From the IMG/VR virus record IMGVR_UViG_3300042509_001467, positions 16,668 through 80,667 of that record: a stretch of 64,000 nucleotides of DNA. The stretch is one strand, 5' to 3'. The position numbers and the translations under genes were made by a program. Position 1 is the stretch's first letter; every line of letters begins with the position of its first letter. Positions 1-46,685 of this stretch are shown in pieces. The notes beneath the pieces are model-generated. The model made no database searches. It saw only the letters and a program-made list of their open reading frames with translations, and was not told where the DNA came from. The DNA is from a virus.

Positions 1-276
1 TGCTGGCTTTTGGGTCTGGAGCGTCGCAAGGTGGAATTCTTGGCATATTGCATGGCAACTTTCGCGCAAAGATTCATCCCAGTTAGTCCCAGCGATCATC
101 TGTGAAGGCTTATGACAATCCGGGTCTTGCACTCGCATGATGTCCTTCTCAACTAAGTCAAGTACTTTCTTTGCGGATTCTTCGGTATCCTCCACAATCC
201 GCGTTGGGTAGCTTTGACGCAAGAATCTAAGGGCTAGATTCCGGTCGCAAGTTGCAAATTGAAATTCATTTTTCAT
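1..276 (-). CDS. Hypothetical protein, 3'-truncated by window edge (copy of 38323..38613)
   Basis: Lies within the direct repeat; ATG at 276, MKNEFQFATC... Confidence 0.75.
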   Translation of the reverse strand, partial: MKNEFQFATCDRNLALRFLRQSYPTRIVEDTEESAKKVLDLVEKDIMRVQDPDCHKPSQMIAGTNWDESLRESCHAICQEFHLATLQTQKPA

Positions 277-395
277 CGTCTAAAAATTCCTCTGATCCGT
301 TGCCAGATCGTTTGTCGTCGTAGCTCACCGTAGGCGTTGCCGCCGTAAATGTCCGGGCGGTCGCTCATTCGTGGTCCGTTGTACTTCTTGGCGGC
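1..395. repeat. Direct repeat copy 1 (probably extends left of the window)
   Basis: Matches 38338-38732 base for base as far as read by eye; diverges after ...gtacttcttggcggc. Confidence 0.95.
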
Positions 396-455
396 TTCAA
401 TGGCGTCCTTTGGCTTATGGGCGGCTTTTGCTTCGGAGAGTGGAAGGTCTTTCAC
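273..455 (-). CDS. Hypothetical protein (C-terminus identical to 38610..38801)
   Basis: GGAGG RBS, 4-nt overlaps with neighbours, paralog in phage B. Confidence 0.75.
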   Translation of the reverse strand: MKDLPLSEAKAAHKPKDAIEAAKKYNGPRMSDRPDIYGGNAYGELRRQTIWQRIRGIFRR

Positions 456-673
456 TTTGCACCTCCCAATTCCCTAGCTAGTGACTGAGCCATTGCAGCC
501 CAAACGAGGTTTTGACTCTTTGCGCCAAATTCAACGTGGTCAAACATCTCGGGGGCTACCACTTCTTGGATGATCTGCCCGATCTGCTCGTCCGATGGTT
601 CGCTGATCGCTTCGTCGTCAAGGCGTCCGAGTACGGTGCTTTCGAGTTCGGTTGCGGAGTAGGTGCCGATCAT
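452..673 (-). CDS. Hypothetical protein (homolog of 38798..39031)
   Basis: MIGTYSATELE vs MIGTYTATELE; EPSD and FDHVE conserved. Confidence 0.8.
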   Translation of the reverse strand: MIGTYSATELESTVLGRLDDEAISEPSDEQIGQIIQEVVAPEMFDHVEFGAKSQNLVWAAMAQSLARELGGAK

Positions 674-960
674 CGTGCCACCACCTCCAATGTCCCTTCC
701 TCAAAGATTCCCTTCAAGATCACTTCGTACAAGAACGCCTGAGCGTTCTCGGCACTTGGCGGGTACAGGCTTTCCTGTTCGCAATCCAGCGATCCAATAG
801 AGAGTCGGTACTGAGTGACGCTGTACTCTGGATCGTACTCTGCGTTGACGGTGTACTTGCCGATCTTGAACGCTAGTTCGGTGTCGGCGGTGAACCCGAG
901 AACGGAGTCTGGGACTTCGATCACGGGGGTTACTGTTTCAATTACTTCTGTTTTGCTCAT
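670..960 (-). CDS. Hypothetical protein (homolog of 39028..39309)
   Basis: VTP..GF..F.I..Y.V.AE..AQ.FLY..I..GIF..EVVA pattern shared; AGGATA RBS. Confidence 0.8.
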   Translation of the reverse strand: MSKTEVIETVTPVIEVPDSVLGFTADTELAFKIGKYTVNAEYDPEYSVTQYRLSIGSLDCEQESLYPPSAENAQAFLYEVILKGIFEEGTLEVVAR

Positions 961-983
961 CTGTTTATCCTTATCCTACTTAC

Positions 984-1472
984 TTACTCGTCGGTGGTCG
1001 GTTGCATACTAGACTCTGGAAAGTTCAGGTACGCAAATGATTTGTGTAGCTCAATCGCTTTGGCGTCGTACACTCTAGCCGCTTCTTCGGCGGTGTCGTA
1101 TACTCCAAGATATTGCTTCTTATAATCAACCATGATTACTGATTGGAATTTTCCGCTCCCCACTTGGGACACTCCGCGAAATCCAGATTTGGATTGCACG
1201 GTTCGGTGTCGCTTCCTGCAATTCTCAGCGTTAGTGCAATTCTGCAAGTTTGCAACCCGATTGTCCAACTTGTCGCCGTTGATATGGTCAGTCTGCAATC
1301 CTTCCGGGGTCATGTTGATAACGCGGTGCATCATGATCCCGAACCCTGGCTTTACCATGCGATAGGCGTAACCCTTGCCAGTAAGCATCCAAGAGTATCG
1401 AGCCAACGGCGCGTACCACTCGTCGTCCACCGTCACGACTAAATCTGAATTGCTGAGTTTGATATGCTTCAT
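984..1472 (-). CDS. HNH endonuclease with C-terminal AP2 DNA-binding domain
   Basis: MHRVI..DHINGDKLDNRVANL..EN (HNH_3 type) followed by SGFRGVS..YLGVYDTAEEAARVYD..LNFP (AP2). Confidence 0.92.
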   Translation of the reverse strand: MKHIKLSNSDLVVTVDDEWYAPLARYSWMLTGKGYAYRMVKPGFGIMMHRVINMTPEGLQTDHINGDKLDNRVANLQNCTNAENCRKRHRTVQSKSGFRGVSQVGSGKFQSVIMVDYKKQYLGVYDTAEEAARVYDAKAIELHKSFAYLNFPESSMQPTTDE

Positions 1473-1474
1473 GG

Positions 1475-1882
1475 TTAGTCCTCCTGGAAAGGATCGTATT
1501 CCTGATCCTGGGCTTTGGCGCGTGGCGCAGCCGCCGCCTTGCTAGGTGCGCCTTCTCCATCTTTCGGTCGGTCTAGCGATTGCACCGAGTCAGCGACAAT
1601 CTCAACGACCTCGCGCTCTGATCCATCCTTCGCCGTGAACTTGCGTGTGGATAGCCGTCCATCAACCGCGACCAGGCGACCCTTACCGACGTACTGGTTC
1701 ACGAACTCGGCGGTCTTCTCCCATGCGGTTACGTTGAAGAAGTCCGCATCTGGTGAACCGTCTTGCGGCTTGAATTTCTTCGTGACGGCGACGTTGAAAC
1801 TCACCACGCTCTTGCCAGTTGCCACTACTCTCAATTCTGGGTCACGGGTTAAGCGACCTACGATTACTACTCTGTTTACCAT
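1475..1882 (-). CDS. ssb: Single-stranded DNA-binding protein
   Basis: NRVVIVGRLTRDPE, GRLVAVDGRL, acidic DPF tail. Start placed at MVNR with GAAGGA RBS. Confidence 0.95.
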   Translation of the reverse strand: MVNRVVIVGRLTRDPELRVVATGKSVVSFNVAVTKKFKPQDGSPDADFFNVTAWEKTAEFVNQYVGKGRLVAVDGRLSTRKFTAKDGSEREVVEIVADSVQSLDRPKDGEGAPSKAAAAPRAKAQDQEYDPFQED

Positions 1883-1977
1883 GCTTATTTGTATCCTTCG
1901 GTTGCCCGATGTAAGTATCTTACCACGTTTTTTCAAATTGTGGGAGTTTCTTATAAAAATTGTGGTAAATTGTTTTC

Positions 1978-2250
1978 ATGCCGAAAAATAGAATCCTAGA
2001 AGCATTTATCGTGAACCCGCTTGAGCCGCGTGATACGCCACTGAACCCTGCCATGTCGGTTCGATCCATCCTATTGTATGCCCTGGAGCGAAACTTCGTT
2101 GGCGAGCTTCATATCAAGTTTGCCACACGTTCAGCAGCCAGCTACACCAGAAAGATGCTGATCGGCGTTGAAGAGTTCAAAGGTTTAGAATTTTGGGGGA
2201 CGAATGAAACTCTTTGCGTCCGAAGACGGTATAATAATATCGGCACTTAG
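1978..2250 (+). CDS. Hypothetical protein, divergently transcribed, probably leaderless (possible regulator)
   Basis: Only + strand ORF in the replication block; TGG-TAAATT extended -10 ends 6 nt before ATG; followed by a terminator. Confidence 0.6.
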   Translation: MPKNRILEAFIVNPLEPRDTPLNPAMSVRSILLYALERNFVGELHIKFATRSAASYTRKMLIGVEEFKGLEFWGTNETLCVRRRYNNIGT

Positions 2251-2289
2251 ATTTTTCACCACCAGAAACCAACAACAGCTAGTACCTTG

Positions 2290-2320
2290 ACCCTCGATCT
2301 TCGGATCGGGGGTATTTTTT
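2290..2320 (+). terminator. Intrinsic terminator
   Basis: ACCCTCGATC-TTCG-GATCGGGGGT then ATTTTTT (cUUCGg loop). Confidence 0.85.
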
Positions 2321-2334
2321 GTGGTTCAGGAGGC

Positions 2335-2364
2335 AAAAGGAAACCCCGGTGGATAAAGCCGGGG
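2335..2364 (-). terminator. Intrinsic terminator (minus strand)
   Basis: CCCCGG-N9-CCGGGG followed by UUUCCUUUU on the minus strand. Confidence 0.75.
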
Positions 2365-2393
2365 CTGTTATTTAGGATAGACCGCGATGAACG
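2335..2393 (-). ncRNA. Candidate ~58 nt small RNA carrying the anti-RBS sequence GUCUAUCCU
   Basis: Extended -10 TGC-TATACT at 2407-2399, short non-coding body, terminator. Confidence 0.45.
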
Positions 2394-2409
2394 GTTTGAG
2401 TATAGCACA

Positions 2410-3855
2410 CTAATTTAGTTCTAGGTATGGGTCTAGCCAAAATTCATGCCCTTCTCGCATAAGTTCTGGTCGGTTCATCGTATCTTTGATCGTCTCCTTG
2501 CCGTAACCCGCGCCTTTGAGCGCGTTCACGATCACGTCACGGTGTACTCTCGCCCCTGTTGGCAAGCTATAGAAGAGGCTCTTGACTATATCCCACGGCT
2601 TTGCCCTATGATCCGCGCCGTGGAGCCATGCCAGCCGTCCAAGGCTAATCTCATGCCCGTCAATGTCAATCTTGTCTGAGAGAATCTCAAAGCTGATTGG
2701 TTTGGATTGTTTGCCGACGTTACACTTGATATGCGCGAGGCTCACGATCTTGCTGCTTGAATCGTTCTCAACCTGGACTAAGGTTAGTGCTGATCTTGCA
2801 ACGTTGAACATCTCCACCGATCCGTAGGGTATCGCGCTAGATGCGTTGGTTAGTCCTGCCTTGCGGCTTTGTGCGGTCGCCTTAGCGACGTGACCTGCTC
2901 CTACCATTGTGCAACCGTGGCGGTGCAAGACCTGAGCCATGCCATTCATGGCGGTTCGTACTGCGATGTCGGTCTGTGCGCCCCCTGCTTGGACTGCCTT
3001 GGCTACAAACTCCCAGAGCGGGTCGAAGTAGCAGAACTTGATCCTCATGTCGCCTATGAACTGGTCGCAATCTTTGATGCCCTTTGGCGTAAAGCCCTCA
3101 AACCATCCAGAGGTCACGGCGACCGTTGCCGGGTCGCCTCCATGAGCAATTAAGCTCGGCTTAATACGTGACTCGGGGCTATCTTCGTTGCTAATCCACC
3201 AGCAATTCATTGGCTCGGCTATTGGTCTGCCTGGAAAGGGGATACCTGCCGAAAGGCAAGCTATCCAGTGCGAGAGTAAGGTCGTCTTACCAGATTCTCC
3301 CTCTGCGCTGAGTAGGGTGATCGCATTCTCGGGTACGTAGTTTGCAACCAGGAAGTTCTGGGGCTTGGCTACGATCTTGTCAGCGTATACGAATGGAATT
3401 GCTTTGCGGGCGTTCGCATTAGCGGTAGCCTCTACATTCTTTGCCCCCTCTGTGACAACCCTAAGACTATCCTTAGTCTCAAAACTCGGGTTAATCAGCG
3501 AGTCAAGCACCTGGTGTCCGAACTCGTCAATACCCCTGCGAGTTGCCTTGTCTTTGACAATCCCGATGTAAGAGGGTAGGTTTTCGGTGCTGACTACGGA
3601 CTCGGCGCGTAGCAATAGGCTCGGGGTGCCACCAGTTTGCTCGTACAGCCCCTTCGCCATGAGCCTCGCCTTCATCACTACCATGTCCACAACGACGCCC
3701 TCGGCGTCTGCCTCAGCGAAGATGTCAAAGTACCATTGGTGCGCCCTCACAAAGAAGTCGGTGGAGGTTAGTTCTTTGAGCGCGGTCTTTGCCGCGCTAG
3801 GCGAGAGCATCATGCACCCAAGTACACACATCTCAGCTTCTTCGGAGTAAATCAA
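2410..3855 (-). CDS. Replicative helicase-like protein: DnaB N-terminal domain fused to an AAA_25/RepA-type RecA-fold ATPase
   Basis: EEAEMCVLGCMMLS..DFF..H N-terminus; Walker A AEGESGKTT; ISNEDS; FDPL; HVAK; GS..MFNVARS. Confidence 0.8.
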   Translation of the reverse strand: MIYSEEAEMCVLGCMMLSPSAAKTALKELTSTDFFVRAHQWYFDIFAEADAEGVVVDMVVMKARLMAKGLYEQTGGTPSLLLRAESVVSTENLPSYIGIVKDKATRRGIDEFGHQVLDSLINPSFETKDSLRVVTEGAKNVEATANANARKAIPFVYADKIVAKPQNFLVANYVPENAITLLSAEGESGKTTLLSHWIACLSAGIPFPGRPIAEPMNCWWISNEDSPESRIKPSLIAHGGDPATVAVTSGWFEGFTPKGIKDCDQFIGDMRIKFCYFDPLWEFVAKAVQAGGAQTDIAVRTAMNGMAQVLHRHGCTMVGAGHVAKATAQSRKAGLTNASSAIPYGSVEMFNVARSALTLVQVENDSSSKIVSLAHIKCNVGKQSKPISFEILSDKIDIDGHEISLGRLAWLHGADHRAKPWDIVKSLFYSLPTGARVHRDVIVNALKGAGYGKETIKDTMNRPELMREGHEFWLDPYLELN

Positions 3856-5627
3856 CGTCCCGCCTTCTTGTTTTCTAGTAGAGATATGAGTTGGCTTGCC
3901 TCGCCCTTGGTCAGCTTTGCAAGTATGCCCTCGTCCACTTCTTTGAATGATCTAATGTACTTGATCTGGGCGGGGCTTGGGGATTCTTTGCGCCATTTCT
4001 GAGCGCGTTTGACTAGCCCGACACAATCAGCCCATCTTGCCTTGATCGTCGCCTCCGCCCTGCCAATAGCCTCGTCCACATCCCTGCCAGCAATAAACTC
4101 CTGGCTATAATCTTTGCTCTCCATGCGTAAATGCCATTGCCCCGTCGCATCCTCTCGGAGCGTTGCCGATCTGCCATTGCCGCATGAGAGGTGCATCATC
4201 TGAACATCTGCGCTTAGATTGATCCACGAGAGACTTGGATTTCCGATCACTTGGTCAGCTACCCTTAGCTCGTCTAAGATTGAAACCTTTTGCAAGGCGT
4301 CGGTCAGAGTAGACATATCTAACTCGCGGTGCATCAGCACCGCTAATGCCTCCTTGCTTATGTCATCCAGAATCAAGAGTGCATCCGCGGTCTTCTTACC
4401 TCTAAGGTCTAGCTTGGGTGGCAACCCTACGATCCCGGCGACGGTCGGCGTCTCTTGCTTCACGTCCTCGCCCTCTTCGTCCACAATCTCGATCACGATA
4501 CACTCAGGTTTGCGGCTATTGCCGATCCTCTGCAAGCGTGTCTTGATATGTTCGCGTGTTTCTAGCCCATCAATGCAACCTGGCTCGGTTCTTAGACCTC
4601 GCCCTACCATCTGGGTATAGAGCGCAAAGCTCTTGGTTGGTCTTAAAATCAGGACGCACTCACAATTTGGCAGGTCTACACCCTCGGTTGCAATCTCCAC
4701 GTTGATCAGAACCTTGACGCGGTTCTCACGAAAGCCCTGCATGACCGCCCTTCGCTCGTCCTTGTGCATCTTGCCATGAACCATCTCAGCGGGTACGCCT
4801 TTAAGCTGAAAGCACTCGGTGACTGCCATAGCGTGTTTGATGTCGCAACAGAAGACGATTGTTTGCTTGCCGTTTGCAACGTCAGCCCATGTATCATAGG
4901 CGAGAATGTTCCTCATGTTGACGTTAATCGCCTCTGAGAGTTGGCTAATGTCGTAGTCGCCCATCAGGGTGCGAACCTTGCGTAAGTCAACGCTTGACTT
5001 GCGGCGATACCCTGCGATGTCGCATAGCCACCCCTCTTTGATCGCGTCGGCTAGGGTCTTGGAGTAGCTGACGACTTGGTATGGGGTTTGATCGTGTCCA
5101 AACAGGGCGCGGTTGTCCATCCTATGCGGCGTTGCCGTGACGCCTATGCTCTGGGTAGAACCGTCTAGGCATCCAGCTTTAAGATAAACCTCTTGGTATG
5201 ACCTGGCTGCGGATCGGTGCGCCTCGTCTGTCCAGACCACGCTTGGAGCGAACCGCTCAACAATGTTAGAGTCTGCCCTGCCTACGCTTTGAACGCTGGC
5301 TACGCATAGGTCAGCACCAAAGTCGCAACGCTCTCCTGCGCCATGCTGGGTGACTTTAACCTCGGGTGCTATGCTTTGTACCCTTGACTTGATTTGCTGG
5401 ATCAGTTCGTCTCTATGGACGATTGCAAGCATCTTGCCATCGTGCTTATGGCGTTGCATCTGCCACGCCATAACGTTGGTTTTGCCTAAGCCTGTGGCTA
5501 GGACTATGAGGCGTCGTTGGAAGCCTTGCTTTCTTGATTTGTCGTCGGCGTCAATCGCCTCTTGTTGATAATATCTAGGGGTCGCCGCCCTCGGTGCCAC
5601 TTCTTCGCCAAACAGTCCTGCCATCAT
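3852..5627 (-). CDS. Superfamily II DNA helicase (DEAH, ResIII/Irc3-like)
   Basis: LATGLGKT, DEAH, TATP, TEGVDLP, QMVGRGLR motifs. Confidence 0.93.
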   Translation of the reverse strand: MMAGLFGEEVAPRAATPRYYQQEAIDADDKSRKQGFQRRLIVLATGLGKTNVMAWQMQRHKHDGKMLAIVHRDELIQQIKSRVQSIAPEVKVTQHGAGERCDFGADLCVASVQSVGRADSNIVERFAPSVVWTDEAHRSAARSYQEVYLKAGCLDGSTQSIGVTATPHRMDNRALFGHDQTPYQVVSYSKTLADAIKEGWLCDIAGYRRKSSVDLRKVRTLMGDYDISQLSEAINVNMRNILAYDTWADVANGKQTIVFCCDIKHAMAVTECFQLKGVPAEMVHGKMHKDERRAVMQGFRENRVKVLINVEIATEGVDLPNCECVLILRPTKSFALYTQMVGRGLRTEPGCIDGLETREHIKTRLQRIGNSRKPECIVIEIVDEEGEDVKQETPTVAGIVGLPPKLDLRGKKTADALLILDDISKEALAVLMHRELDMSTLTDALQKVSILDELRVADQVIGNPSLSWINLSADVQMMHLSCGNGRSATLREDATGQWHLRMESKDYSQEFIAGRDVDEAIGRAEATIKARWADCVGLVKRAQKWRKESPSPAQIKYIRSFKEVDEGILAKLTKGEASQLISLLENKKAGR

Positions 5628-5967
5628 GAATTTCTATCCTTACCGTTCCTTCTTGTTCTCCTGGCACGTATTCGATTGCCGAACCTGAAACGTACTTCAC
5701 GTTATCGTCGGGCAATATCCCTGCATTGACCAGGCTATCCTCCACGATCTTGACCATGTTGCTGAGGTCGCGCCCTTTGTTGACTTTGCCCTCGACTACA
5801 ATCACGATCTTAACCGGGAGTGATGATTTTGGAACGGGGGTAAGGTGCAACTTGAACATCATCGTTGCCTTAGCCCCCCAGTTCCGGTACTCTTCTGATT
5901 TAACTCGCCGCCCGTTCTTGAGTGTGATATTCGCGTGGTTCACGCTCGGGGGCAGCGATAATCTCAC
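5575..5967 (-). CDS. rusA: RusA-family Holliday junction resolvase
   Basis: LPPSVN..RDLSNMVKIVEDSL..GILPDDN. Confidence 0.85.
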   Translation of the reverse strand: MRLSLPPSVNHANITLKNGRRVKSEEYRNWGAKATMMFKLHLTPVPKSSLPVKIVIVVEGKVNKGRDLSNMVKIVEDSLVNAGILPDDNVKYVSGSAIEYVPGEQEGTVRIEIHDGRTVWRRSGTEGGDP

Positions 5968-6611
5968 TTAGGCGCGACGCCCTCAACCAAGTAGCTCATC
6001 ACCTGGTCGCGTGTCTTGCAACCTGCTACCTTTGCCTCGTTAATCAGTGCGTTCGGGGTTGACTTATCGCCAGCTAATTGCTTGATCGCGCCCCATGTCG
6101 CCTTGTCGCCTCCTACCTCTTTGGATAGGAACCAATCGGCTACCGCTTTCGGGTCAAAGGTTGGGAGTGGTGGAGCCTCATGCTCGTCTGAGTCGTCGTC
6201 CTCTAGCCTGATCTTAAACTGCTGGATCATGGCGTACTTGACGCCCTGAGTCCGAGCCTTCTGGATGCACTTGTCATCGGTAGTCATGCACTGACCAGCC
6301 GAGAATACAGAGTGTATTTGCCCTGTCTCCACGCACTCAAAGTCAATCCTTAGCTTGACCATGCAATCGGTACGCTCTTCTGGCGTACCGCTCTTTGACT
6401 TGGTGATCTTGACGTAATCCACGTCAAGAATATGGTTGGTCGAGATGACGCCCTTATCAATCTCTTGTTGCCTGAGAATAGGCTGAACGTCGTACCAGTG
6501 CTGAAATGAGTAAGATACGCCGCCCCCTTCTGCCTTCTTCTTTGCGACTACATCAAAGTCGCGCTCAATCTCCAGCAGCTTCTTTAAAATCCCCGTGGTC
6601 ACGTCCATCAA
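5964..6611 (-). CDS. ERF-family single-strand annealing protein
   Basis: YSF..DV..; DDK.IQKA.T.G.KY...F.I..DD.D motif; homolog of 40842..41522. Confidence 0.75.
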   Translation of the reverse strand: MMDVTTGILKKLLEIERDFDVVAKKKAEGGGVSYSFQHWYDVQPILRQQEIDKGVISTNHILDVDYVKITKSKSGTPEERTDCMVKLRIDFECVETGQIHSVFSAGQCMTTDDKCIQKARTQGVKYAMIQQFKIRLEDDDSDEHEAPPLPTFDPKAVADWFLSKEVGGDKATWGAIKQLAGDKSTPNALINEAKVAGCKTRDQVMSYLVEGVAPK

Positions 6612-6790
6612 TCCTTCTCCTCCACGTAGGTAGCGTTAATGCGTTCCACGCTAATGAATGAGACGTGGTTCTTGCCAAACATGACTTGTGTACCGCGTTC
6701 GGTCGTAAAGTGCCTTAGTTTTGGGTTGTGCGTGGCGACGTAGTTGCCTAGTCGCCTTAATGTTTCTTCAAATGTGTATGTTCTATCCAT
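6608..6790 (-). CDS. Hypothetical protein
   Basis: AGGATAGA RBS, overlaps next gene. Confidence 0.65.
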   Translation of the reverse strand: MDRTYTFEETLRRLGNYVATHNPKLRHFTTERGTQVMFGKNHVSFISVERINATYVEEKD

Positions 6791-6801
6791 GTTCTATCCT
6801 C

Positions 6802-7077
6802 TTACGGCCAGGTTCCACCATCAAGTGCCGCCGTTCGCGTTCCTATTTCTAAAATGTCCGCCTCAAGGGTCGTAATATTGCCCTGGAGGGTCGCAACGTC
6901 TGCCTCTAGCGCGGCAATCGTCGTATCCTGATAGTCAATGACCAGGCTTGCATCTGCGGGGTCAACCGCAAAGATCGCATCGTCAGCCGAGCATACTATT
7001 TTACCGTCAACGAACCTCTCAATGCGATACCTAGTGGCACGATCTGAGCCAACGAAAATCCAATCTCCGACGATCAT
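6802..7077 (-). CDS. Hypothetical protein with C-terminal coiled coil
   Basis: Start at MIVG overlapping the upstream stop; heptads IAALEADVATLQGNITTLEADI. Confidence 0.6.
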   Translation of the reverse strand: MIVGDWIFVGSDRATRYRIERFVDGKIVCSADDAIFAVDPADASLVIDYQDTTIAALEADVATLQGNITTLEADILEIGTRTAALDGGTWP

Positions 7078-7478
7078 AGACGCCACCCTGCCTCTCGCCA
7101 CTTGGCGATAAGGTTCTGGAAGTGTCCGGCGTCTTTGACTTTGAGCATATCGGTCATGATCCGGTCTAAGAAGTCATGCGACTCTTCTGCCGTTACCCTC
7201 TTCCAGTCCCGCATATTCTCTAGCCCTACTTGCGGTCGAAAGATAAAGCCCGTATGGGTGCATCTCAGGGTGATTGTGAACTGGTCTGGCTTCGGCATCT
7301 TCATCTTGATTGCAACCATTTCGACCCCGGCAACCTCAAAAGACTCCATGACCGAGACGGGTATGACCTTAGCCGTGTCCTCCATCCAGTGCAGGTCGCT
7401 CACTCTTGGAACGGGCAAGTACGTCAAACCGTACTTGCCTAACCCTATCTCACTAATGCCCTTTACGATTCCGTTCAT
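7074..7478 (-). CDS. Hypothetical protein
   Basis: Tightly packed in operon. Confidence 0.65.
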   Translation of the reverse strand: MNGIVKGISEIGLGKYGLTYLPVPRVSDLHWMEDTAKVIPVSVMESFEVAGVEMVAIKMKMPKPDQFTITLRCTHTGFIFRPQVGLENMRDWKRVTAEESHDFLDRIMTDMLKVKDAGHFQNLIAKWREAGWRL

Positions 7479-7885
7479 ATTTGCCCCCCGAATGTGTAAT
7501 CCACGTTACCACACTTCTCAGCGATCATTGCTAGTGCTTGCATTAAAACCTGCTCATGCTCTGGCATATCTTTACCTTGTGCGTTATTGACGGTCTTCCA
7601 CCATTCTGAGTACCTTTGATCTATCGCCCTCAGTGCGCGTGGCTCAATCGAGCTTAACCTGCATATCTGGTGCGCTGAGATTCCTAGCCCCTGCGCGAGA
7701 CGGCAAAAGCGGTACTTGAATGGGGTAATGCTACGCCTGGCGCGTCTGCTTGCGGTGTTGTGCAGCTCCCACGGGTACTTCTCGTCGGGGTCATTGTGCG
7801 GGTGGTGGTTTAAGAATTGCTCCCACTCTCCATCATTCATGCTCATGCACAATGCCGTTATGATTTGGTTCGGCATCCCGTTCAT
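7475..7885 (-). CDS. Hypothetical protein (possible HTH)
   Basis: Operon packing; GISAHQICRLSSIEPRAL resembles a helix-turn-helix. Confidence 0.6.
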   Translation of the reverse strand: MNGMPNQIITALCMSMNDGEWEQFLNHHPHNDPDEKYPWELHNTASRRARRSITPFKYRFCRLAQGLGISAHQICRLSSIEPRALRAIDQRYSEWWKTVNNAQGKDMPEHEQVLMQALAMIAEKCGNVDYTFGGQI

Positions 7886-8373
7886 TTTATTCTAAGCACC
7901 TCCGTTTGCTCTCCGAGCTTGACGCCTGGAACGTCCTCACCAGCGGCTAGTGCCGCCTTGATTGCCGTCTTGTCCCAAGTCGGCTCCATCTCCTTCATGT
8001 ACTGGATTGGAATGACCTTTGGGTCTAGAATCTCCAGCGGTGCGGCTCCTGCCTTGCCTACTGTGAGGGTGAAGCGGTTGGTTTGCACCTTTGGTCTATC
8101 TAGTGCGATCATCGCTCCCTTGATCCGCTGCTCCATGAAGTCGGCTAGTTTTTGCACCGCTTTTGCCTTATCTGCAAAGAATTTGGATTCTGCCTTGAAC
8201 TTCTCGGCGTCGCTCTCGGCGTTTCGCATGACGTAAACGCACCCTTCGAGCTTGGTTTCCAGGTCGCCCTCCATGCCCGCCAGGGTGTCGTCGAACGTTT
8301 GCTGGTCAATGTCGCCAGCTTCCAGCATGGCGACCAGTTGTAGATGTTGCTCTGTTATTTCGTATAGGTTCAT
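7882..8373 (-). CDS. Siphovirus Gp157-family protein
   Basis: MNLYEIT..DTL...EGDLETKLEG..; DKTAIKAALAAGEDVPGVKL..LRIK. Confidence 0.88.
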   Translation of the reverse strand: MNLYEITEQHLQLVAMLEAGDIDQQTFDDTLAGMEGDLETKLEGCVYVMRNAESDAEKFKAESKFFADKAKAVQKLADFMEQRIKGAMIALDRPKVQTNRFTLTVGKAGAAPLEILDPKVIPIQYMKEMEPTWDKTAIKAALAAGEDVPGVKLGEQTEVLRIK

Positions 8374-8726
8374 AGTGCCTCCTCCTTTATTTTAAGTCCT
8401 TTTTCTATCCTCTTAGCGTTGTATGACGCTAGGCGCGTCCTTGCCTCGTCAATTCCTGCTCTTAGTGCCTCTTGCTCAGTCAAAAATAACCCGTGGCTAC
8501 GTGCGATCTTTTCTGCCTCGACTTCGCTTGTGCTTGCTCCAAACATGGTGCTTGCCCCCAGGTTGATTACAAACGCCCAGTTTGCGTTTGATCTCTTATG
8601 TATTGCGGTGCAATGCGACTTCTCCACTACGACGAAGAAGTGTCCAACTTTTGCAGCGTGGTGCTTGCGGTACTCCTTCTTGGTTGTGGTTCTGAATGTA
8701 AATCCTTCAATTGCTTGTGTTTTCAT
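8370..8726 (-). CDS. Hypothetical protein
   Basis: Operon packing. Confidence 0.6.
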   Translation of the reverse strand: MKTQAIEGFTFRTTTKKEYRKHHAAKVGHFFVVVEKSHCTAIHKRSNANWAFVINLGASTMFGASTSEVEAEKIARSHGLFLTEQEALRAGIDEARTRLASYNAKRIEKGLKIKEEAL

Positions 8727-8869
8727 AGTTCATGTTCTCCGATGTATCGTAGAGTCTCCCCGGTTTCCCGGGGTTCTCTTAGGTATTGCAGGGTTGCTGT
8801 GATCGTGCCGCAAATTACTGCGAAGAGTGCGACCAGTACGATCAGGTCTGTCATTTTTTGGTTTTTCAT
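8723..8869 (-). CDS. Small membrane protein (48 aa, not in ORF track)
   Basis: MKNQKMTDLIVLVALFAVICGTITATLQYL...; fills the gap with 4-nt overlaps at both ends. Confidence 0.6.
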   Translation of the reverse strand: MKNQKMTDLIVLVALFAVICGTITATLQYLREPRETGETLRYIGEHEL

Positions 8870-9237
8870 GGTTGGGTTTTCTCCGGTTTGTATAGTCCCA
8901 TAACATAGTTATATTCATCATCGCTGACTGGGATATCTTGCTCACTCATATTGTCTAGCCCAAGACATAGGATTGATTGAATCTCTTGCATCACCTCTGG
9001 CGGCAGCTTGCCGACATTCTCACCTTCTAACCTGATTAGAACATTGTCGCCTAACCCAGTCTCATCATGCGGCATATCCCAGTACCCATTAAGGTAGTAA
9101 TCGTTAGGCTCAAGGCAATACACCCGCACTCCTGCAGTAATTGCGTCCTGCTCTTCTTCGTCTGATGTAAAGCAGAAGTTCTCGCACTCCTTTTCTTCAT
9201 GCAGGTACTTGTAGTCGTCAACGTCGTATATTTTCAT
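8866..9237 (-). CDS. Acidic hypothetical early protein
   Basis: Operon packing. Confidence 0.65.
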   Translation of the reverse strand: MKIYDVDDYKYLHEEKECENFCFTSDEEEQDAITAGVRVYCLEPNDYYLNGYWDMPHDETGLGDNVLIRLEGENVGKLPPEVMQEIQSILCLGLDNMSEQDIPVSDDEYNYVMGLYKPEKTQP

Positions 9238-9650
9238 GCTGGTTCTCCGTTTTGAAACATCTTAAACTCTGCCCCATGGTCCAGGTAATCGAGGCTCTTA
9301 GATAAATCCTCCCTGATTTCTGCGTCGTAGTCGCGCTTAGATTTTACGTGAGATTCAAGGTATGCCCCTTCTGATTTCTCATCAAAATCATATCTAGCGC
9401 AGGTCTTGAGTGCCATTTCAAAGCTTCCGAGATGCCCGATATGAACGTCAATTACCTCATGTCCGCACTCACGGGTGTAGATGTCTTTTAGCTCAAACGC
9501 TTGGCACTTTCCGTCATCGTTTCGCGATATGTAGTACTTGCCAAACATTAGACAATCGTCTTTAATCTCAACCTGGGTCGTCTTAATACCCATAAGTGCC
9601 GTGTACCTTTTTGCGGTGTTGATCTCTTCGTTAGTAAATGTTTTGTTCAT
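9234..9650 (-). CDS. Hypothetical early protein
   Basis: AGGATAGA RBS. Confidence 0.7.
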   Translation of the reverse strand: MNKTFTNEEINTAKRYTALMGIKTTQVEIKDDCLMFGKYYISRNDDGKCQAFELKDIYTRECGHEVIDVHIGHLGSFEMALKTCARYDFDEKSEGAYLESHVKSKRDYDAEIREDLSKSLDYLDHGAEFKMFQNGEPA

Positions 9651-9663
9651 TGTTTTCTATCCT

Positions 9664-9731
9664 GCTATGAGTTCGGCATAGCTCCCTAGAATCTTTGGAC
9701 TCTAGGCAACCCTGCCGGGGTTGCTTTACTC
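9664..9731 (-). ncRNA. Unassigned structured RNA (three hairpins with potential pseudoknots)
   Basis: GCAACCC/GGGUUGC, CUAGAGUC/GAUUCUAG and GCUAUG/CAUAGC fill the intergenic gap up to the RBS. Confidence 0.6.
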
Positions 9732-9962
9732 TTACTCTACCGGGGCGCACCCTGGCTTATACATCTTTTGCCACGGTTCATGGCGCATAAACCTTTCGGC
9801 GTGGTCAATGTTCATGCCCTTAAACATCCGTTTCTCTTGGTGCATCCAGATTTTGACTAGCCCAGTGCTTCGGTCTACGAATTCCAGCCACCACCCGCCA
9901 TGTCGTTTGCCCATCCACTCAAGCTGCAATACGTGAGTATCATTCTGCTCAATGATCGTCAT
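9732..9962 (-). CDS. Hypothetical early protein
   Basis: Operon packing. Confidence 0.6.
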   Translation of the reverse strand: MTIIEQNDTHVLQLEWMGKRHGGWWLEFVDRSTGLVKIWMHQEKRMFKGMNIDHAERFMRHEPWQKMYKPGCAPVE

Positions 9963-10156
9963 AATTTATTCACCATCGCGCTAGGGTCTAGCCACGGGTT
10001 GATACCATCCGCATCCGTGACTCTAAACCTTTCGAATCCTTGATCTATCGCCCATTTCTTAGCCTCTTCGAACCGTGACCCATCGCCGACGGTGATAACA
10101 TCTTCTGCCCATTCCGGGTCACCCTTTCGGTGTCCCCATAATACGAATTCTCTCAT
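9959..10156 (-). CDS. Hypothetical early protein
   Basis: Operon packing; AGGAGG upstream. Confidence 0.65.
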   Translation of the reverse strand: MREFVLWGHRKGDPEWAEDVITVGDGSRFEEAKKWAIDQGFERFRVTDADGINPWLDPSAMVNKL

Positions 10157-10329
10157 AGTTCCATTGCCTCCTGCTCTCTCGATTGTTGCACCAGGTCTGC
10201 CGCATCGAAGAGGGGTTGAAATTGGCGCGTCATCTCTGCCGCCATTTGGTCATTGATTGCCCTCTTTGCGTCTGCCGGGTTTAACCCGGCATATACGGTC
10301 TTTTGGTTTATGATAATCTCAATTCTCAT
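10153..10329 (-). CDS. Hypothetical early protein (58 aa, not in ORF track)
   Basis: MRIEIIINQKTVYAGLNPADAK...; 4-nt overlaps on both sides. Confidence 0.55.
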   Translation of the reverse strand: MRIEIIINQKTVYAGLNPADAKRAINDQMAAEMTRQFQPLFDAADLVQQSREQEAMEL

Positions 10330-10523
10330 GCCTTCGCCTCATCAGCATTGAATAGCTTCACGATCTGGCACTCTGCACCAGGTGCGAAGCACCTTTGCCC
10401 TAAGCTGCATCCGGTAATCGGACGCCATAGCTCCATCATTGACCATTGGCTAGAGTCCCAATCCGATCTAACGCGCCACGCGTGATTCTTATACTTCACG
10501 ATTGAGCCGCTTGGAATAATCAC
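10326..10523 (-). CDS. Hypothetical early protein
   Basis: GTG start with AGGAGG RBS. Confidence 0.6.
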   Translation of the reverse strand: MIIPSGSIVKYKNHAWRVRSDWDSSQWSMMELWRPITGCSLGQRCFAPGAECQIVKLFNADEAKA

Positions 10524-10618
10524 GCTCTGAACCTCCTGGCGATTCTTCGAAGTTTGAGGGTGCTGATCTTGGTCCTGTTAACGTGACCTTTGCCTTGATA
10601 TGTTTTGATTGTATCCAT
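10520..10618 (-). CDS. 32-aa basic Arg-rich peptide directly downstream of the twister ribozyme
   Basis: MDTIKTYQGKGHVNRTKISTLKLRRIARRFRA; AGGATAG RBS; stop overlaps the next start (GTGA). Confidence 0.55.
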   Translation of the reverse strand: MDTIKTYQGKGHVNRTKISTLKLRRIARRFRA

Positions 10619-10626
10619 GTGTCTAT

Positions 10627-10676
10627 CCTCACTCTCTATTTTCACGGGCTTGTGACCGTCCATGGCTAGATTAAGG
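10627..10676 (-). ncRNA. Twister self-cleaving ribozyme, type P1
   Basis: Minus-strand RNA CCU-UAA-UCUA-GCC-AUGG-ACGG-UCACAAGC-CCGU-GAAAA-UAGA-GAGUG-AGG. P1 CCU/AGG, P2 UCUA/UAGA, P4 ACGG/CCGU; loop CAC pairs with GUG and GC pairs with GC for the two pseudoknots; invariant UAA and GAG in L1. Predicted cut U10673/A10672. Confidence 0.93.
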
Positions 10677-10702
10677 GTGCCAGGTGCTAACCTGGCATAG
10701 TG

Positions 10703-11119
10703 TTACTTGATCTTTGAGAGTGTCCAGCCATCCTCAGTCTTGCCATTGAATGTCTGCTCTAGAGTCCAGCCCAATTCTTTAAGCGCGTTGATCACTGATG
10801 ATTCACCCGCTGCCGAGGTTCGCGCGATCTTGTTATGCTCATCGCTTCCATGAGTGTAAATCCATCTTAGAAAATCTGCCATGACTGCCGAGGTCTTGCA
10901 ATACCCATACCCGCTGGCATACGCTACCTTTTCGCCTCGATGGTTACTGATTCGCGGGCATGACCCCCAGGTACTAGACTTGTTGTAGCTGATTGCGAAT
11001 CCGGCGCGTCCAGTGCCGTACTCTGAGTTGATTTGATTTACTAACACTTGCGCGTATTCTTGTGCGCGTAATTCAAGCGTCGTTAGTTTAGGTGTTTTGG
11101 TTGTTGTTGTATCGCTCAT
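10703..11119 (-). CDS. Conserved early protein (homolog of 47666..48052)
   Basis: S.TWG..P, ASG.GY.K.SA, L.W, EH.KI..AG, AL.E.G..LE shared with the phage B gene. Confidence 0.8.
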   Translation of the reverse strand: MSDTTTTKTPKLTTLELRAQEYAQVLVNQINSEYGTGRAGFAISYNKSSTWGSCPRISNHRGEKVAYASGYGYCKTSAVMADFLRWIYTHGSDEHNKIARTSAAGESSVINALKELGWTLEQTFNGKTEDGWTLSKIK

Positions 11120-11155
11120 TTGGTTTATCCTTAGTCTTGATTGCTGGTCATTGCG

Positions 11156-11410
11156 TTAGTTTTGTACGCTCATGTGGTCACTGTAGCTGCTCAGATACTC
11201 CTGCAGGTACTCAGGGTCATTATCACGCTTTGCGGCCGCTATCTCTGAGCGAATCTCTTCCATGTCCCCGGCATCGTCTATAATCACTGAGCGTTTACCC
11301 TGGCTGATTTGGTAGTAATGGCATCCGAACCGGTTTACTAGCTTAACTGTATATTTGGTCTTAGGTCGCGCCACTGTAAAGAGTGAACCGTTCAGGTATT
11401 CCGGTGTCAT
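11156..11410 (-). CDS. Hypothetical early protein
   Basis: Start at MTPEY overlapping the upstream stop. Confidence 0.55.
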   Translation of the reverse strand: MTPEYLNGSLFTVARPKTKYTVKLVNRFGCHYYQISQGKRSVIIDDAGDMEEIRSEIAAAKRDNDPEYLQEYLSSYSDHMSVQN

Positions 11411-11853
11411 ACAACACCCCACATCTCTTGCCCGTCCACGTACAATGTCATATTGCCATGATCTGAGACCACCAGGTAAGTACCCGATGGATCGTCTGGC
11501 AATTCGTCGCACTTGATCAAATCGCCATCGTAAATGTCATGTTCTAGACTCTCTTGGCTGATCCAATACCCGAAGTCTGAACCATCTCCCTCATGCGCTC
11601 CAAAGTACGCGTATGGTGGTGCAATAGCGTTCATCTCATCGAAGAGAATGTCATTCAGGTACTCGTCCAGTAGGTCATCGTCCCCAACCTCCTCATCAGT
11701 TAGGCGATTCAATGCATCCTGAATCTCTTCGGGTAGCGTGAAGGATGAATTGTACTCTTTGAGTACGTCCACGAAGTCAGGAATGAGATCGGCTGCGATG
11801 TGCGTACCATGTGAGATGGTGCCGAGTGGTGCGAATTGTTTTGATCGTGTCAT
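11407..11853 (-). CDS. Acidic conserved phage early protein
   Basis: GTISHGT..DLIP.F; APPY.YFGAHEGDGSDFGYW; VSDHGN; GGAGGA RBS. Confidence 0.75.
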   Translation of the reverse strand: MTRSKQFAPLGTISHGTHIAADLIPDFVDVLKEYNSSFTLPEEIQDALNRLTDEEVGDDDLLDEYLNDILFDEMNAIAPPYAYFGAHEGDGSDFGYWISQESLEHDIYDGDLIKCDELPDDPSGTYLVVSDHGNMTLYVDGQEMWGVV

Positions 11854-12062
11854 TAAAATAGTCCTCCAAATTGGCAATGCTGCCGCATCTCTTTTTCGCT
11901 CATGGGCTCGCAAGTCATGCGCTCGATTGTTTCTAGGCATGATTGGTCCGACTTTTGGGACCAGAAACGCTTTAGATCGTCTAGGTCCTCTTGGTAAAAC
12001 CTGCTGCCGGGAGTGAGATGCTTCGAAGCTAGTTTAAAAGCTTTTTGCTGTAATCGTGTCAT
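11853..12062 (-). CDS. First gene of early operon, hypothetical
   Basis: GGATA RBS; preceded by a 5' hairpin and promoter. Confidence 0.6.
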   Translation of the reverse strand: MTRLQQKAFKLASKHLTPGSRFYQEDLDDLKRFWSQKSDQSCLETIERMTCEPMSEKEMRQHCQFGGLF

Positions 12063-12099
12063 TTTGGTTATCCATGCAGCTCGCCGAGCTACGTTTAAG

Positions 12100-12108
12100 A
12101 TATTAGCA
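12100..12108 (-). promoter_or_regulatory. Early promoter, extended -10 (TGC-TAATAT)
   Basis: Located ~40 nt upstream of the first leftward gene; leader begins with hairpin GUAGCUC/GAGCUGC. Confidence 0.6.
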
Positions 12109-12653
12109 CAGTATTTTCTAAACTGTATACTTCCGGTATCCTATTTTGTGCAAGTCAGGTATTTATACTGTATTCACTGAATACATTTATATTCAGATTT
12201 TTTTGTTTTTTGGAATATGAGCTTATTGCAAACAATTTGCAATAGTGTGATCCGACAATAAGCCAAGACGCCATTTGGTACGCGCTTCCAACCTTGTACC
12301 TATCCCTAGAAGTTCCGGCGCAGCTTTGTACCTTTTCTTGCGTGTATATAGTGTGTGGTACGTTTGTCTACACGTTTTACGTTAAAATTAATTCGTTCGA
12401 TTTCCTAATTGTTGCGTGTGCAAGTATTTAGGTAGGGGGTACGGGGGACGAGCGGTTGAATTGTAGGGTATGTACCCCAACACATATGCCGACCTATTTT
12501 CAATTACCCCTTGCTCGTACCTACTCTCGATCTCAAGTTCAATTCAGCCTACGTAGCGACAGCGAATGTAGGCGTGTATTTTTCTTTTGAACCTAAATCA
12601 AGTGCCATAACGTTATTCCAAGACTTTATTTAAAAACCTGGTAATTTTAACAG

Positions 12654-12682
12654 TAGACAAGGTTTTTTTTACCGGGTATATT
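12654..12682 (+). promoter_or_regulatory. sigma70-type promoter for the rightward (lysis/structural) operon
   Basis: TAGACA-17 bp-TATATT. Confidence 0.65.
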
Positions 12683-12942
12683 CCTTCCTATACAGACTGA
12701 GCGATAGCTTAGTCTGCCCGCGACTAGCGGGAGCCGCACCAAGCTCCGGATTACAAGCTTTCACCCACGCCCTGCTAATTCGCAGGGCGCAAGAAGCAAG
12801 CATAGTAGTTTAGCGTAAGTACAATAGGATGCTTAAAGTGGATGCTCAAAGTGAAGCTACGCCTGGATGTTTACCTTAGTTGTATACGGGTATTTACGAG
12901 TAATTAGAGTCTTTTAGGGGTTGTGACTCGTTCTTAGAGTTA

Positions 12943-34652: not shown

Positions 34653-35441
34653 ATGAAAGCCTTAGCCTTTGGATGTATCCACCACCCGGTAGCCGATCCA
34701 AAGGCTTTGCGGTTTCTACATGACCAGATTGAGGCGTTTCGACCTGACGTGCTGGTAAACCTAGGAGATTGGTACGACGGTGAGGGATGGTCGCGCTGGG
34801 ACAATGAGAATCCTTGGACGATCATTGACGAATACCGGGCGGCGCGTGACCATGCAAGGGTACTCAACTCATTCTCCTTCATCCAAAAGAAGGTCTGGCT
34901 TTATGGCAACCACGAGGCAAACATCTCGGAGCCTGGTAGGTTAAAGAAGTCTCAACGCTCCATCGTGGACTGGCAAGATTGGAGTCCCCCAGGCGGGGGG
35001 CTTAGGGATGAGGTCAAAGATTGGCACGTCATCAAGAAGTACGGTTCGAGTGTTCGTTGGAATCTCGGACCTATTTCTTTTGTGCATGGCGTCAAGGCAA
35101 ACGTTTATTCTGCCAGGGATGAGGCTCGGATGCACTGTGTACCCAACGGGTTAACCGTCTCTGCTCACTCGCATAGACCCGTTATGGTGACCCGTGACTC
35201 TTTGGCGGGTAACCAACCCGCCGACCTCTGGTTTGCCAACGTAGGCACTGGGATAGACGTTTCTAAGGCGCGGTACATTCAGCGTTCAAACTATCAGGGG
35301 TGGGGCATGGCGGTCTGCTTGATCGAGGTTCACTCTACGGACAAGTCGCTGCTGAAAGAAGGGCGGCGCGGGTACATGACCAAGATATGGGATGCAAAGA
35401 CGGAGATACTAGGTATCCAGCGCGATAGGCTAAGAGCATGA
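34653..35441 (+). CDS. Calcineurin-like metallophosphoesterase
   Basis: G-C-I-H, GDWYD, GNHE, HG, HSHR. Confidence 0.85.
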   Translation: MKALAFGCIHHPVADPKALRFLHDQIEAFRPDVLVNLGDWYDGEGWSRWDNENPWTIIDEYRAARDHARVLNSFSFIQKKVWLYGNHEANISEPGRLKKSQRSIVDWQDWSPPGGGLRDEVKDWHVIKKYGSSVRWNLGPISFVHGVKANVYSARDEARMHCVPNGLTVSAHSHRPVMVTRDSLAGNQPADLWFANVGTGIDVSKARYIQRSNYQGWGMAVCLIEVHSTDKSLLKEGRRGYMTKIWDAKTEILGIQRDRLRA

Positions 35442-36163
35442 AGACAATCACCGTCCGCAAGGCAAACGAGATCATCGCTCGGTACGACGGCTTTCTAGGC
35501 TTAGAGATACCCGAGCTAATTGTGCCGACGCCTGATCCTGTAGGCTGGTCCGACAAGGAGATTCTAGTGCCGTGTGGCTTTACGGGTTCGCTCTTCTTCC
35601 AGTCTGAGGGCGTCAATGCTTCCATCGGATCATCCAAGCGAAAGAAGCATAAGAAGGACGAGGAAAAGAATGCATATCTCGACGGGCTGAACCTTGAAGC
35701 GGTCATGGAGCGCGGCATGGTCTTTGCTCAGAACGTCGCTCATTCATTCTTTGACATCACCGTTTGCGGGCGCGAGGAAATAGGTACGGGAATCAAGTTA
35801 GAGAATTGCCAGTCTTTGGTTCTGTGCGGGTCGCTGACGAACATCGGCATACAAGACCCATACAAGACAGGGCAGGGGTACGGGATCATCGTACAGGACT
35901 GCTTGGCGTGCATCATCCATGACGTAGAAATCCGTGGCGCGAGGTACGGCGTCTCCTTTACTGGCTCCGGTGAGGCAAATACGGCGGTGAATATCTTTGG
36001 TGAGGTGTTGGTTGCGCTCGTGGACTTCCATAGTGGCAAGCACCTACGCCCATTCGTTGCTGGTGTGGCTACGATCAAGGACGGCAACGAGACGTTCGGC
36101 GGTGGTTCGGTGGAAGGTCAGTTCTACGGCTACGAGGAATTGCGGCGGGTTGAGAAGGTTTGA
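35438..36163 (+). CDS. Hypothetical protein, beta-helix-like
   Basis: GIKLENC, GYGIIV..C, RYGVSF, DFHSG repeats resemble a pectin-lyase fold. Confidence 0.5.
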   Translation: MKTITVRKANEIIARYDGFLGLEIPELIVPTPDPVGWSDKEILVPCGFTGSLFFQSEGVNASIGSSKRKKHKKDEEKNAYLDGLNLEAVMERGMVFAQNVAHSFFDITVCGREEIGTGIKLENCQSLVLCGSLTNIGIQDPYKTGQGYGIIVQDCLACIIHDVEIRGARYGVSFTGSGEANTAVNIFGEVLVALVDFHSGKHLRPFVAGVATIKDGNETFGGGSVEGQFYGYEELRRVEKV

Positions 36164-38219: not shown

Positions 38220-38326
38220 ACCCCGTCAAGCCAAGGGTGGTCGGCGTAAATGGTCAGGAACGCGGCGACTAGTCCAATGTAAAGGAGTGCCAGCGCGAAT
38301 TTGCCGGGGCGTGTTAGGTAGGTCAT
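38210..38326 (-). CDS. Small membrane protein
   Basis: MTYLTRPGKFALALLYIGLVAAFLTIY...; GAGGT RBS. Confidence 0.55.
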   Translation of the reverse strand: MTYLTRPGKFALALLYIGLVAAFLTIYADHPWLDGVWR

Positions 38327-38613
38327 TCGGATACCTCTGCTGGCTTTTGGGTCTGGAGCGTCGCAAGGTGGAATTCTTGGCATATTGCATGGCAACTTTC
38401 GCGCAAAGATTCATCCCAGTTAGTCCCAGCGATCATCTGTGAAGGCTTATGACAATCCGGGTCTTGCACTCGCATGATGTCCTTCTCAACTAAGTCAAGT
38501 ACTTTCTTTGCGGATTCTTCGGTATCCTCCACAATCCGCGTTGGGTAGCTTTGACGCAAGAATCTAAGGGCTAGATTCCGGTCGCAAGTTGCAAATTGAA
38601 ATTCATTTTTCAT
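38323..38613 (-). CDS. Hypothetical protein
   Basis: Operon packing; within the repeat. Confidence 0.7.
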   Translation of the reverse strand: MKNEFQFATCDRNLALRFLRQSYPTRIVEDTEESAKKVLDLVEKDIMRVQDPDCHKPSQMIAGTNWDESLRESCHAICQEFHLATLQTQKPAEVSE

Positions 38614-38732
38614 CGTCTAAAAATTCCTCTGATCCGTTGCCAGATCGTTTGTCGTCGTAGCTCACCGTAGGCGTTGCCGCCGTAAATGTCCGGGCGGTCG
38701 CTCATTCGTGGTCCGTTGTACTTCTTGGCGGC
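38338..38732. repeat. Direct repeat copy 2
   Basis: Matches 1-395 at offset 38,337. Confidence 0.95.
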
Positions 38733-38801
38733 GGTGATGGCGTCCTCTAGCCCGGATTCTCTTTGGGCTTTTGCGCTTGCTTGCGATAATGTCTCCTTCA
38801 T
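38610..38801 (-). CDS. Hypothetical protein spanning the repeat boundary
   Basis: Shares its C-terminal 40 aa with 273..455. Confidence 0.75.
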   Translation of the reverse strand: MKETLSQASAKAQRESGLEDAITAAKKYNGPRMSDRPDIYGGNAYGELRRQTIWQRIRGIFRR

Positions 38802-46644: not shown

Positions 46645-46685
46645 AAAAACAAAACCCCGCCCTAATTGGGCGAGGTGTTTCGTTG
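46645..46685. terminator. Bidirectional terminator at convergence
   Basis: CGCCC-TAATT-GGGCG with A-tract on the left and T-rich sequence on the right. Confidence 0.6.

Follow-up and report, generated by a model that had tools for sequence, protein, structure and literature searches.

The stretch described here lies on the minus strand between positions 2409 and 2327 of a 64,000-nucleotide window, by which we mean the whole stretch of DNA that was analyzed, corresponding to bases 16668-80667 of the 80,667-bp IMG/VR record IMGVR_UViG_3300042509_001467. The minus-strand early genes of this phage form a long run from about 12,000 downwards, and the stretch directly follows a DnaB-like helicase gene with which, according to the gene order, the minus-strand early/replication operon ends. 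The neighbourhood contains the following genes and features:

5964..6611, minus strand: ERF-type recombinase gene
3852..5627, minus strand: SF2 helicase gene, ATG at 5627
2410..3855, minus strand: DnaB-like replicative helicase gene (Pfam DnaB, 3e-18; AAA_25, 6e-17), stop codon TAG at 2412-2410
2290..2320, plus strand: terminator of orf90, strong, with a 10-bp stem, a UUCG loop and T6
1978..2250, plus strand: orf90, convergent with the helicase operon
below 1936, minus strand: SSB and HNH genes, continuing on this strand

The product of orf90 (90 aa) matched no Pfam or PHROG family. The terminator behind orf90 shields the candidate stretch from plus-strand transcription. For the SSB gene (window 1876-1936, minus strand), the probable start is ATG 1881 (RBS AAGGATAC) and not TTG 1936; in the long form, the Pfam SSB domain does not begin until residue 20. 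Between orf90 and the SSB gene, positions 1900-1980 form a possible switch region in which 6 nt separate the end of TGTGGTAAATT from the orf90 ATG, implying a leaderless message, TGGTAAGAT on the opposite strand faces the SSB gene and two operator-like copies of AAATTGTGG lie between them.

All 24 sequencing runs containing the sequence are lake-water metagenome DNA. Self-comparison shows that the 80.7-kb record consists of two related phage genomes of ~40 kb each, or that it is a chimeric join or concatenation, with these shared segments:

window -3659..-2936 and 35438..36161: 89% identity
window -106..409 and 38231..38746: 99% identity
the two record ends, matching each other: 92% identity

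IMG/VR gives the record as linear and its completeness is estimated by CheckV at 79%. The candidate locus belongs to the first of the two phages, which we call phage A, the second being phage B. The record contains no integrase or resolvase, and searches of deposited phage records by megablast and tblastn returned no close relative and only relatives of less than 36% identity. The early (minus) and late (plus) blocks are separated by a ~1-kb AT-rich non-coding control region (window 11940-12950) with promoter-class motifs at 12110 (minus) and 12354 (plus) and several TATACT/TATATT elements.

Reading the minus strand onwards from the helicase stop codon, one finds TGTGCTATACT, GUUCAUCGCG, GUCUAUCCU, AAAUAAC, a hairpin, UUUCCUUUU and then GCCUCCUG. 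The following elements are seen or predicted:

2409-2399, minus strand: promoter-like element TGTGCTATACT, with -17 TRTG -14, an extended -10 and the hexamer TATACT
2392-2374, minus strand: predicted unpaired 5' part, with the predicted RNA start at ~2392
2382-2374, minus strand: box A, GUCUAUCCU, i.e. (G)UCUAUCCU, complement of AGGAUAGA(C)
2366-2342, minus strand: terminator hairpin of 8 bp (6 G-C) with the 9-nt loop CUUUAUCCA (2358-2350)
in the terminator loop, minus strand: box B, CUUUAUCC (UUUAUCC), complementary to GGAUAAA(G)
2343-2335, minus strand: U-tract UUUCCUUUU, where the RNA 3' end is expected
2336-2327, minus strand: box C, UUGCCUCCUG, coinciding with the expected 3' end or lying slightly past it
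2374..2413, plus strand: the opposite reading, consisting of AGGATAGA, 5 nt, ATG and an 8-codon ORF (MNGLSIAH) whose stop codon overlaps that of the helicase

The stretch is the 3'UTR and intrinsic terminator of the helicase (early/replication) operon. Its G+C-rich stem-loop with the adjoining U-tract, which is interrupted by CC, starts 44 nt past the helicase stop codon, and in the predicted fold the terminator loop is unpaired with a probability of 0.98. The terminator program scored this hairpin on the plus strand only, owing to its loop limit; on the minus strand it scored no terminator-like site in 1-12000, where the same limit also left the candidate hairpin unscored. As the stretch is the tail of the helicase message, a minus-strand RNA is made in any case and a promoter of its own is not required.

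In the window no Rfam family reached its gathering score and c4 gave no match, and at E values of up to 10 just three weak and unrelated plus-strand matches were obtained over 2200-2500. The region 2255-2425 shows no similarity to the rest of the record beyond chance 9-12-mers. A 50-aa ORF on the minus strand (2256..2408) was rejected as a gene, having no SD and running through two terminator hairpins.

The promoter-like element begins one base past the helicase stop codon and has the sequence of a sigma-70/sigma-A extended -10 promoter (TRTGn followed by TAnnnT), a form in which the TRTGn part has been described for promoters of Gram-positive bacteria (PMC2613000). The record contains five copies of its more specific pattern, TGTG[CG]TAnnnT, a number that is not above chance (5 vs 3.0), so that only the placement of the copies is unusual. 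All five fall between 1961 and 12364, and non-coding DNA accounts for four of them; the sites are:

6 nt before the ATG of orf90
2409-2399, minus strand, in the candidate
28 nt before ATG 7478
one copy on each strand of the 1-kb control region that precedes the early operon

The candidate shares TGTGCTA with the control-region copy at 12110-12100 (minus). This placement supports a putative promoter at the candidate.

The complementarity of the stretch concerns a short sequence that recurs before early genes. AGGATAGA is found six times in the window, which is also the total for the whole record, compared with a mean of 1.42 in shuffled sequences, 2 of 100 of which reach six. Five copies are on the minus strand (5640, 6800, 8411, 9663 and 10629) and the remaining one, on the plus strand, belongs to the candidate. 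Four of the five minus-strand copies stand 2-5 nt before an ATG (5627, 6790, 9650 and 10618), and among all 8-mers sitting 2-8 nt before an ATG that opens at least 30 codons, AGGATAGA has the largest number of independent genes behind it; the counts of the two that tie with it come from repeated segments of the record or from adjacent ATGs. The possibility that AGGATAGA is a DNA-level motif (operator, iteron or methylation site) was considered and rejected in view of this fixed 2-5-nt distance to the ATG. A second variant of the tag, GGATAAA (GGAUAAA in RNA), precedes genes 11119 and 960. In detail, the sites are:

964..977, minus strand: AGGATAAGGATAAA, RBS of the 96-aa gene with ATG 960, complementary to box B and partly to box A
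5633..5640, minus strand: AGGATAGA, RBS of the SF2 helicase gene with ATG 5627
6793..6800, minus strand: AGGATAGA, RBS of the 60-aa gene with ATG 6790
8404..8411, minus strand: fifth minus-strand copy of AGGATAGA, inside a gene and 31 nt before ATG 8373, not an RBS
9656..9663, minus strand: AGGATAGA, RBS of the 138-aa gene with ATG 9650 (ATGAAC)
10621..10629, minus strand: AGGATAGAC, RBS of the 32-aa gene with ATG 10618, a 9-nt match to the candidate
11124..11131, minus strand: AGGATAAA, RBS of the 138-aa gene with ATG 11119, complementary to loop box B

Taking both variants together, the minus strand of 900-11200 contains GGATA[AG]A eight times, where about 1.3 would be expected by our own arithmetic. 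On the plus strand of the same interval there are two copies, and both fall within the candidate, one in the unpaired part and one in the terminator loop. Over the whole record the tag stands before no late gene and before no gene of phage B.

Some of the tagged genes have further peculiarities. At 6778-6800 (minus) the RBS and start GGATAGAACAT are tandemly duplicated, so that the tag recurs as codons 1-3 of the 60-aa gene, and the products of genes 6790 and 10618 begin similarly (MDRTYTFE and MDTIKTYQ) and may be paralogues. A twister ribozyme had been predicted beside gene 10618, which is supported by a twister-P1 match at 10626-10677 (minus) of 52 bits (E=2e-10), though one stem is missing and the Rfam gathering score of 67.2 is not reached. 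The 3' strand of its P1 is the AGGA of the gene 10618 RBS.

The original prediction for this DNA had described an extended -10 (TGC-TATACT), a segment complementary to early ribosome-binding sites and a terminator, all of which are present on the minus strand, the first at 2407-2399. It had also named the RBS of genes 5627, 6790, 9650 and 10618 as exact complements, which is likewise the case: the stretch has perfect matches of 8-9 nt to these four RBS, the one of 9 nt being at 10618, and of 7 nt to two more. The position of the element in a 3'UTR with its terminator, boxes B and C and a segment complementary to the start codon go beyond that prediction. The last of these is GUUCAU (2392-2387, minus), the complement of AUGAAC; box A has CAU five bases upstream, and when read in reverse complement the unpaired 5' part gives an entire initiation region, AGGAUAGA-N5-AUGAAC. 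Box C is a perfect 10-nt complement of the gene 10156 RBS and an 8-nt complement of the gene 8373 RBS, but it falls outside the predicted transcript and would be present only in read-through RNA.

The strength of the pairing was estimated with the 27-nt unpaired part, since RNAduplex with the full 57-nt RNA gave unrealistic duplexes in which the terminator was opened. Against the 29 early initiation regions, the six best duplexes of the unpaired part sum to -109 kcal/mol, compared with -80.7 +/- 9.1 kcal/mol for shuffled sequences (P=0.004), and duplexes of -10 kcal/mol or lower are obtained with 23 initiation regions, compared with a shuffle mean of 10.4 (P=0.002). Genes 9650, 10618, 5627, 960 and 11119 give predicted duplexes of -17 to -19 kcal/mol, and the best predicted target is gene 9650 (-18.2 kcal/mol), where SD and start codon are both paired. 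In the modelled fold the stretch carries an accessible, mostly unpaired seed that is complementary to the initiation regions of its putative targets.

These figures have to be set against the simplest explanation, according to which the stretch is an ordinary 3'UTR with an intrinsic terminator and without any regulatory role, the complementarity being due to chance or to the decayed relic of an inverted gene start. We regard this as a real possibility, although not as a probable one. Any operon needs a terminator at such a site, extended -10 sequences show no overall enrichment, and the contiguous pairing is short, comprising just 8-9 bp (-9.6 and -12.3 kcal/mol), with no extension at three of the four main targets. 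Moreover, the 8-mer complement occurs once on the candidate strand, which equals the chance expectation (~1.2 per strand per record), so that the evidence lies in its placement and in the accompanying elements and not in its occurrence. It is these elements that a plain terminator accounts for poorly, as there are three separate boxes within 57 nt, each matching a recurrent early RBS, and each variant of the tag is matched by a box of its own. The locus contains perfect complements of at least 7 nt to the SD regions of 11 of the 29 early genes, which places it at the top of ~158,000 66-nt windows on both strands, the next-best real one scoring 8; with the initiation regions of phage B, no window scored above 7. 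By a rough estimate the probability of such a cluster per window is ~5e-5. The genome-wide maximum alone is however not significant, because in 11% of trials a genome with locally shuffled dinucleotides contains at least one window scoring 11 or more. Elsewhere the real sequence is poorer in anti-SD clusters than the shuffled ones, which speaks against a plain terminator and fits a published account of aSD-like 8-mers, which act as repressors when they pair with the RBS and are otherwise reported to be depleted within genes (PMC12697547).

The relic variant of this explanation draws on the fact that the plus strand reads SD-N5-ATGAAC just as gene 9650 does, and an inverted copy of such a start would give the same complementarity. 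A recent relic is however difficult to reconcile with the spacer, which has diverged (one of five bases in common with gene 9650) while SD and AUG have been kept, and the record contains no other similarity anywhere that would point to such an origin.

Homologues of the helicase protein were found at 98, 85 and 68% identity on contigs of up to 20 kb, those at 85% on contigs of 8-11 kb and those at 68% on one of 20 kb, and in the 85% relative orf90 lies together with the helicase on one contig of 8,069 nt. Viral, genome and metagenome contig collections gave no match with the helicase, with an alignment of four helicase sequences or with the SF2 helicase, and a degenerate DNA pattern of the invariant C-terminal peptide of the helicase had no match in the three contig collections. 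A fragment of a relative (P0017), reached via spurious ORFs, has kept box C, at the level of the amino-acid reading, as well as the orf90 terminator; it begins at ~2335 and therefore excludes boxes A and B. A variant in another lake run, X23, is represented by contigs whose identity to the window is mostly 90-99%; one of them spans 2266-2924 with 17 differences. At high depth this variant also joins across 8368-8722 and 10696-11116 and is thus devoid of exactly the 118-aa gene 8370..8726 and the twister-adjacent 138-aa gene 10703..11119, a presence or absence of cassettes at gene boundaries.

Phage B has no counterpart of the candidate. A promoter-like site with a terminator at 46732-46654 (minus) was considered as an analogue and rejected, since a plausible 50-aa gene encloses it and it lacks an anti-RBS box. 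That gene (46654-46814, minus) encodes an AT-hook-like KKPRGRPRK, has its stop codon in the loop of a strong and possibly bidirectional terminator and contains a full promoter-like site, TTTGCA-16-TGcTAGAAT. Phage B has a recurrent RBS and spacer of its own, AGGTAAA(A)(C)CAAATG, on three consecutive minus-strand genes (47241, 47598 and 48052). Gene 11119 (minus) of phage A is homologous to a phage B gene with an RBS of the AGGTAAA type and has AGGATAAACCAAATG.

Our preferred reading, which we hold tentatively and at somewhat less than an even chance, is that the stretch would act as an anti-RBS small RNA or 3'UTR element that damps the expression of some early genes. An RNA of ~55-58 nt would be formed at the 3' end of the operon, sharing its terminator with the operon mRNA, and would originate either from its own host-type promoter, TGTGCTATACT, or as a stable, terminator-protected tail of that mRNA. 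Its unpaired 5' part would display UCUAUCCU and CAU and its terminator loop UUUAUCC, so that boxes A and B would complement the two variants, AGGAUAGA and GGAUAAA, of a private early RBS tag marking six early genes, namely 5627 (SF2 helicase), 6790, 9650, 10618, 11119 and 960. Pairing would cover the SD region, and in two targets the start codon as well, and might thereby block binding of the 30S subunit, such that translation of the tagged subset would be damped as the RNA accumulates. From the anatomy, the predicted fold and the complementarity statistics, all of which were computed here, we infer the ends of the transcript, the pairing in vivo and its effect.

The locus had originally been taken for a trans-acting sRNA that could shut off several early genes. 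Complementarity, unpaired seed and promoter class agree with a trans-acting RNA in silico, but a shut-off is not implied, because a host-type early promoter would give co-expression with the targets and hence feedback or damping. What would be expected is damping or delayed negative feedback, not a late switch.

A more far-reaching version of the preferred reading is an RNA-only circuit, in which a regulon defined by the private tag would be governed by one tiny RNA from the end of the operon, with one box per tag variant. At least one tagged RBS, that of gene 10618, would in addition be gated by the self-cleaving twister, whose P1 would hide it, and ribozyme processing and sRNA would compete for the same bases. 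This we consider unlikely.

The same pairing might also take place exclusively in cis, the tail of the ~9.5-kb operon mRNA folding back on its own RBSs, lowering their translation and exposing the mRNA to double-strand-specific RNases, with no separate sRNA being involved. By its position the tail is part of the operon mRNA, and long-range pairing between aSD and RBS within one mRNA has been documented (PMC12697547; PMC3868564). The documented ranges are however hundreds of nucleotides, whereas the nearest tagged RBS is 3.2 kb upstream. The seed is also predicted to be less accessible in the long context, the cost of opening it being 3.3-4.5 kcal/mol when embedded in long mRNA and 1.1 kcal/mol in the 57-nt RNA, and a promoter-class motif lies exactly upstream, all of which makes a purely cis-acting element improbable.

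Very improbable, finally, is a function of the plus strand, either through the 8-codon mini-ORF, the alternative already named with the original prediction, or through a GGA-rich RNA that titrates a CsrA-like or other RBS-binding protein: its AGGATAGA-N5-ATG layout is indeed that of real early starts, and SD-like and GGA motifs are clustered there (four GGA in 56 nt, one of them in the hairpin loop), but a strong plus-strand terminator immediately precedes the site, no promoter-class motif is present between 2320 and 2374 (plus), the ORF has just eight codons and runs antisense into the helicase gene, and a single start would not need three SD-like boxes.

If the preferred reading is real, a defined subset of early genes would be regulated purely by RNA-RNA pairing, by ~55 nt and without a repressor protein. 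It would also mean that the tails of phage operons, which are usually dismissed as terminators, can regulate, and that tag and anti-tag provide a sequence rule for recognizing temporal gene classes in uncultured phages. The case for it is built from in-silico evidence on one genome.

Several known systems resemble the candidate in one respect or another. The CcsR1-4 or 'cuckoo' sRNAs of Alphaproteobacteria likewise originate from the 3'UTR of an upstream gene and have pyrimidine-rich anti-SD loops and many mRNA targets (PMC4615179, PMC8034643). They are however cellular RNAs with 2-4 hairpins, all of which carry the loop motif CCUCCUCCC, and are matured by RNase E with CcaF1. The candidate differs in having one hairpin plus an unpaired box, in being directed against a phage-private tag (AGGAUARA) and not the general SD, and in showing no sequence or Rfam similarity to them; its single loop reads CUUUAUCCA, and CCUCC is found only outside the hairpin, at 2333-2329. 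It is thus an analogue of the cuckoo/CcsR RNAs and not a member of that family.

The c4 RNA of phages P1 and P7 is also a short phage RNA from the same operon as its targets, whose short boxes, some of them in loops, pair around the RBS and block translation of the phage's own genes, and the CI RNA of P4 is of the same general kind (review PMC12197685). But c4 is a processed RNA with a role in prophage immunity and is encoded upstream of the one operon that it targets, whereas the candidate lies at the 3' end of an operon, would address six or more cistrons, comes from a record without integrase and has no Rfam match.

In the icaR mRNA of Staphylococcus aureus, an anti-SD motif in the 3'UTR pairs with the SD and prevents formation of the initiation complex, as proposed here (PMC3868564). 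There, a monocistronic mRNA pairs with its own SD through UCCCCUG, whereas the candidate would address several cistrons kilobases upstream and probably acts in trans as a short RNA. Its tail and targets are assigned to one operon by gene order only and are 3.2-8.8 kb apart.

In the type I 3'UTR-derived sRNAs of enterobacteria (MicL, DapZ), transcription starts from a promoter within or at the very end of the preceding ORF, sRNA and mRNA have one terminator in common, and an unpaired 5' part contains the seed; these RNAs have host targets and depend on Hfq. The candidate has the same layout of promoter, terminator and seed, and its predicted targets are the phage's own initiation regions. In phage T4, the endoribonuclease RegB and the repressor RegA are proteins that cleave or bind RBS and thereby down-regulate a subset of early genes. 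The likeness to the present case is that an early subset is controlled via a feature of the RBS, the proposed effector being here an RNA and not a protein. For the phages PAK_P3 and phiKZ, 3'UTR-derived ncRNAs with no known targets have been reported (PMC10914365). The proposed mode of action of our candidate resembles those of c4, CcsR and the icaR 3'UTR, and it is a member of none of these.
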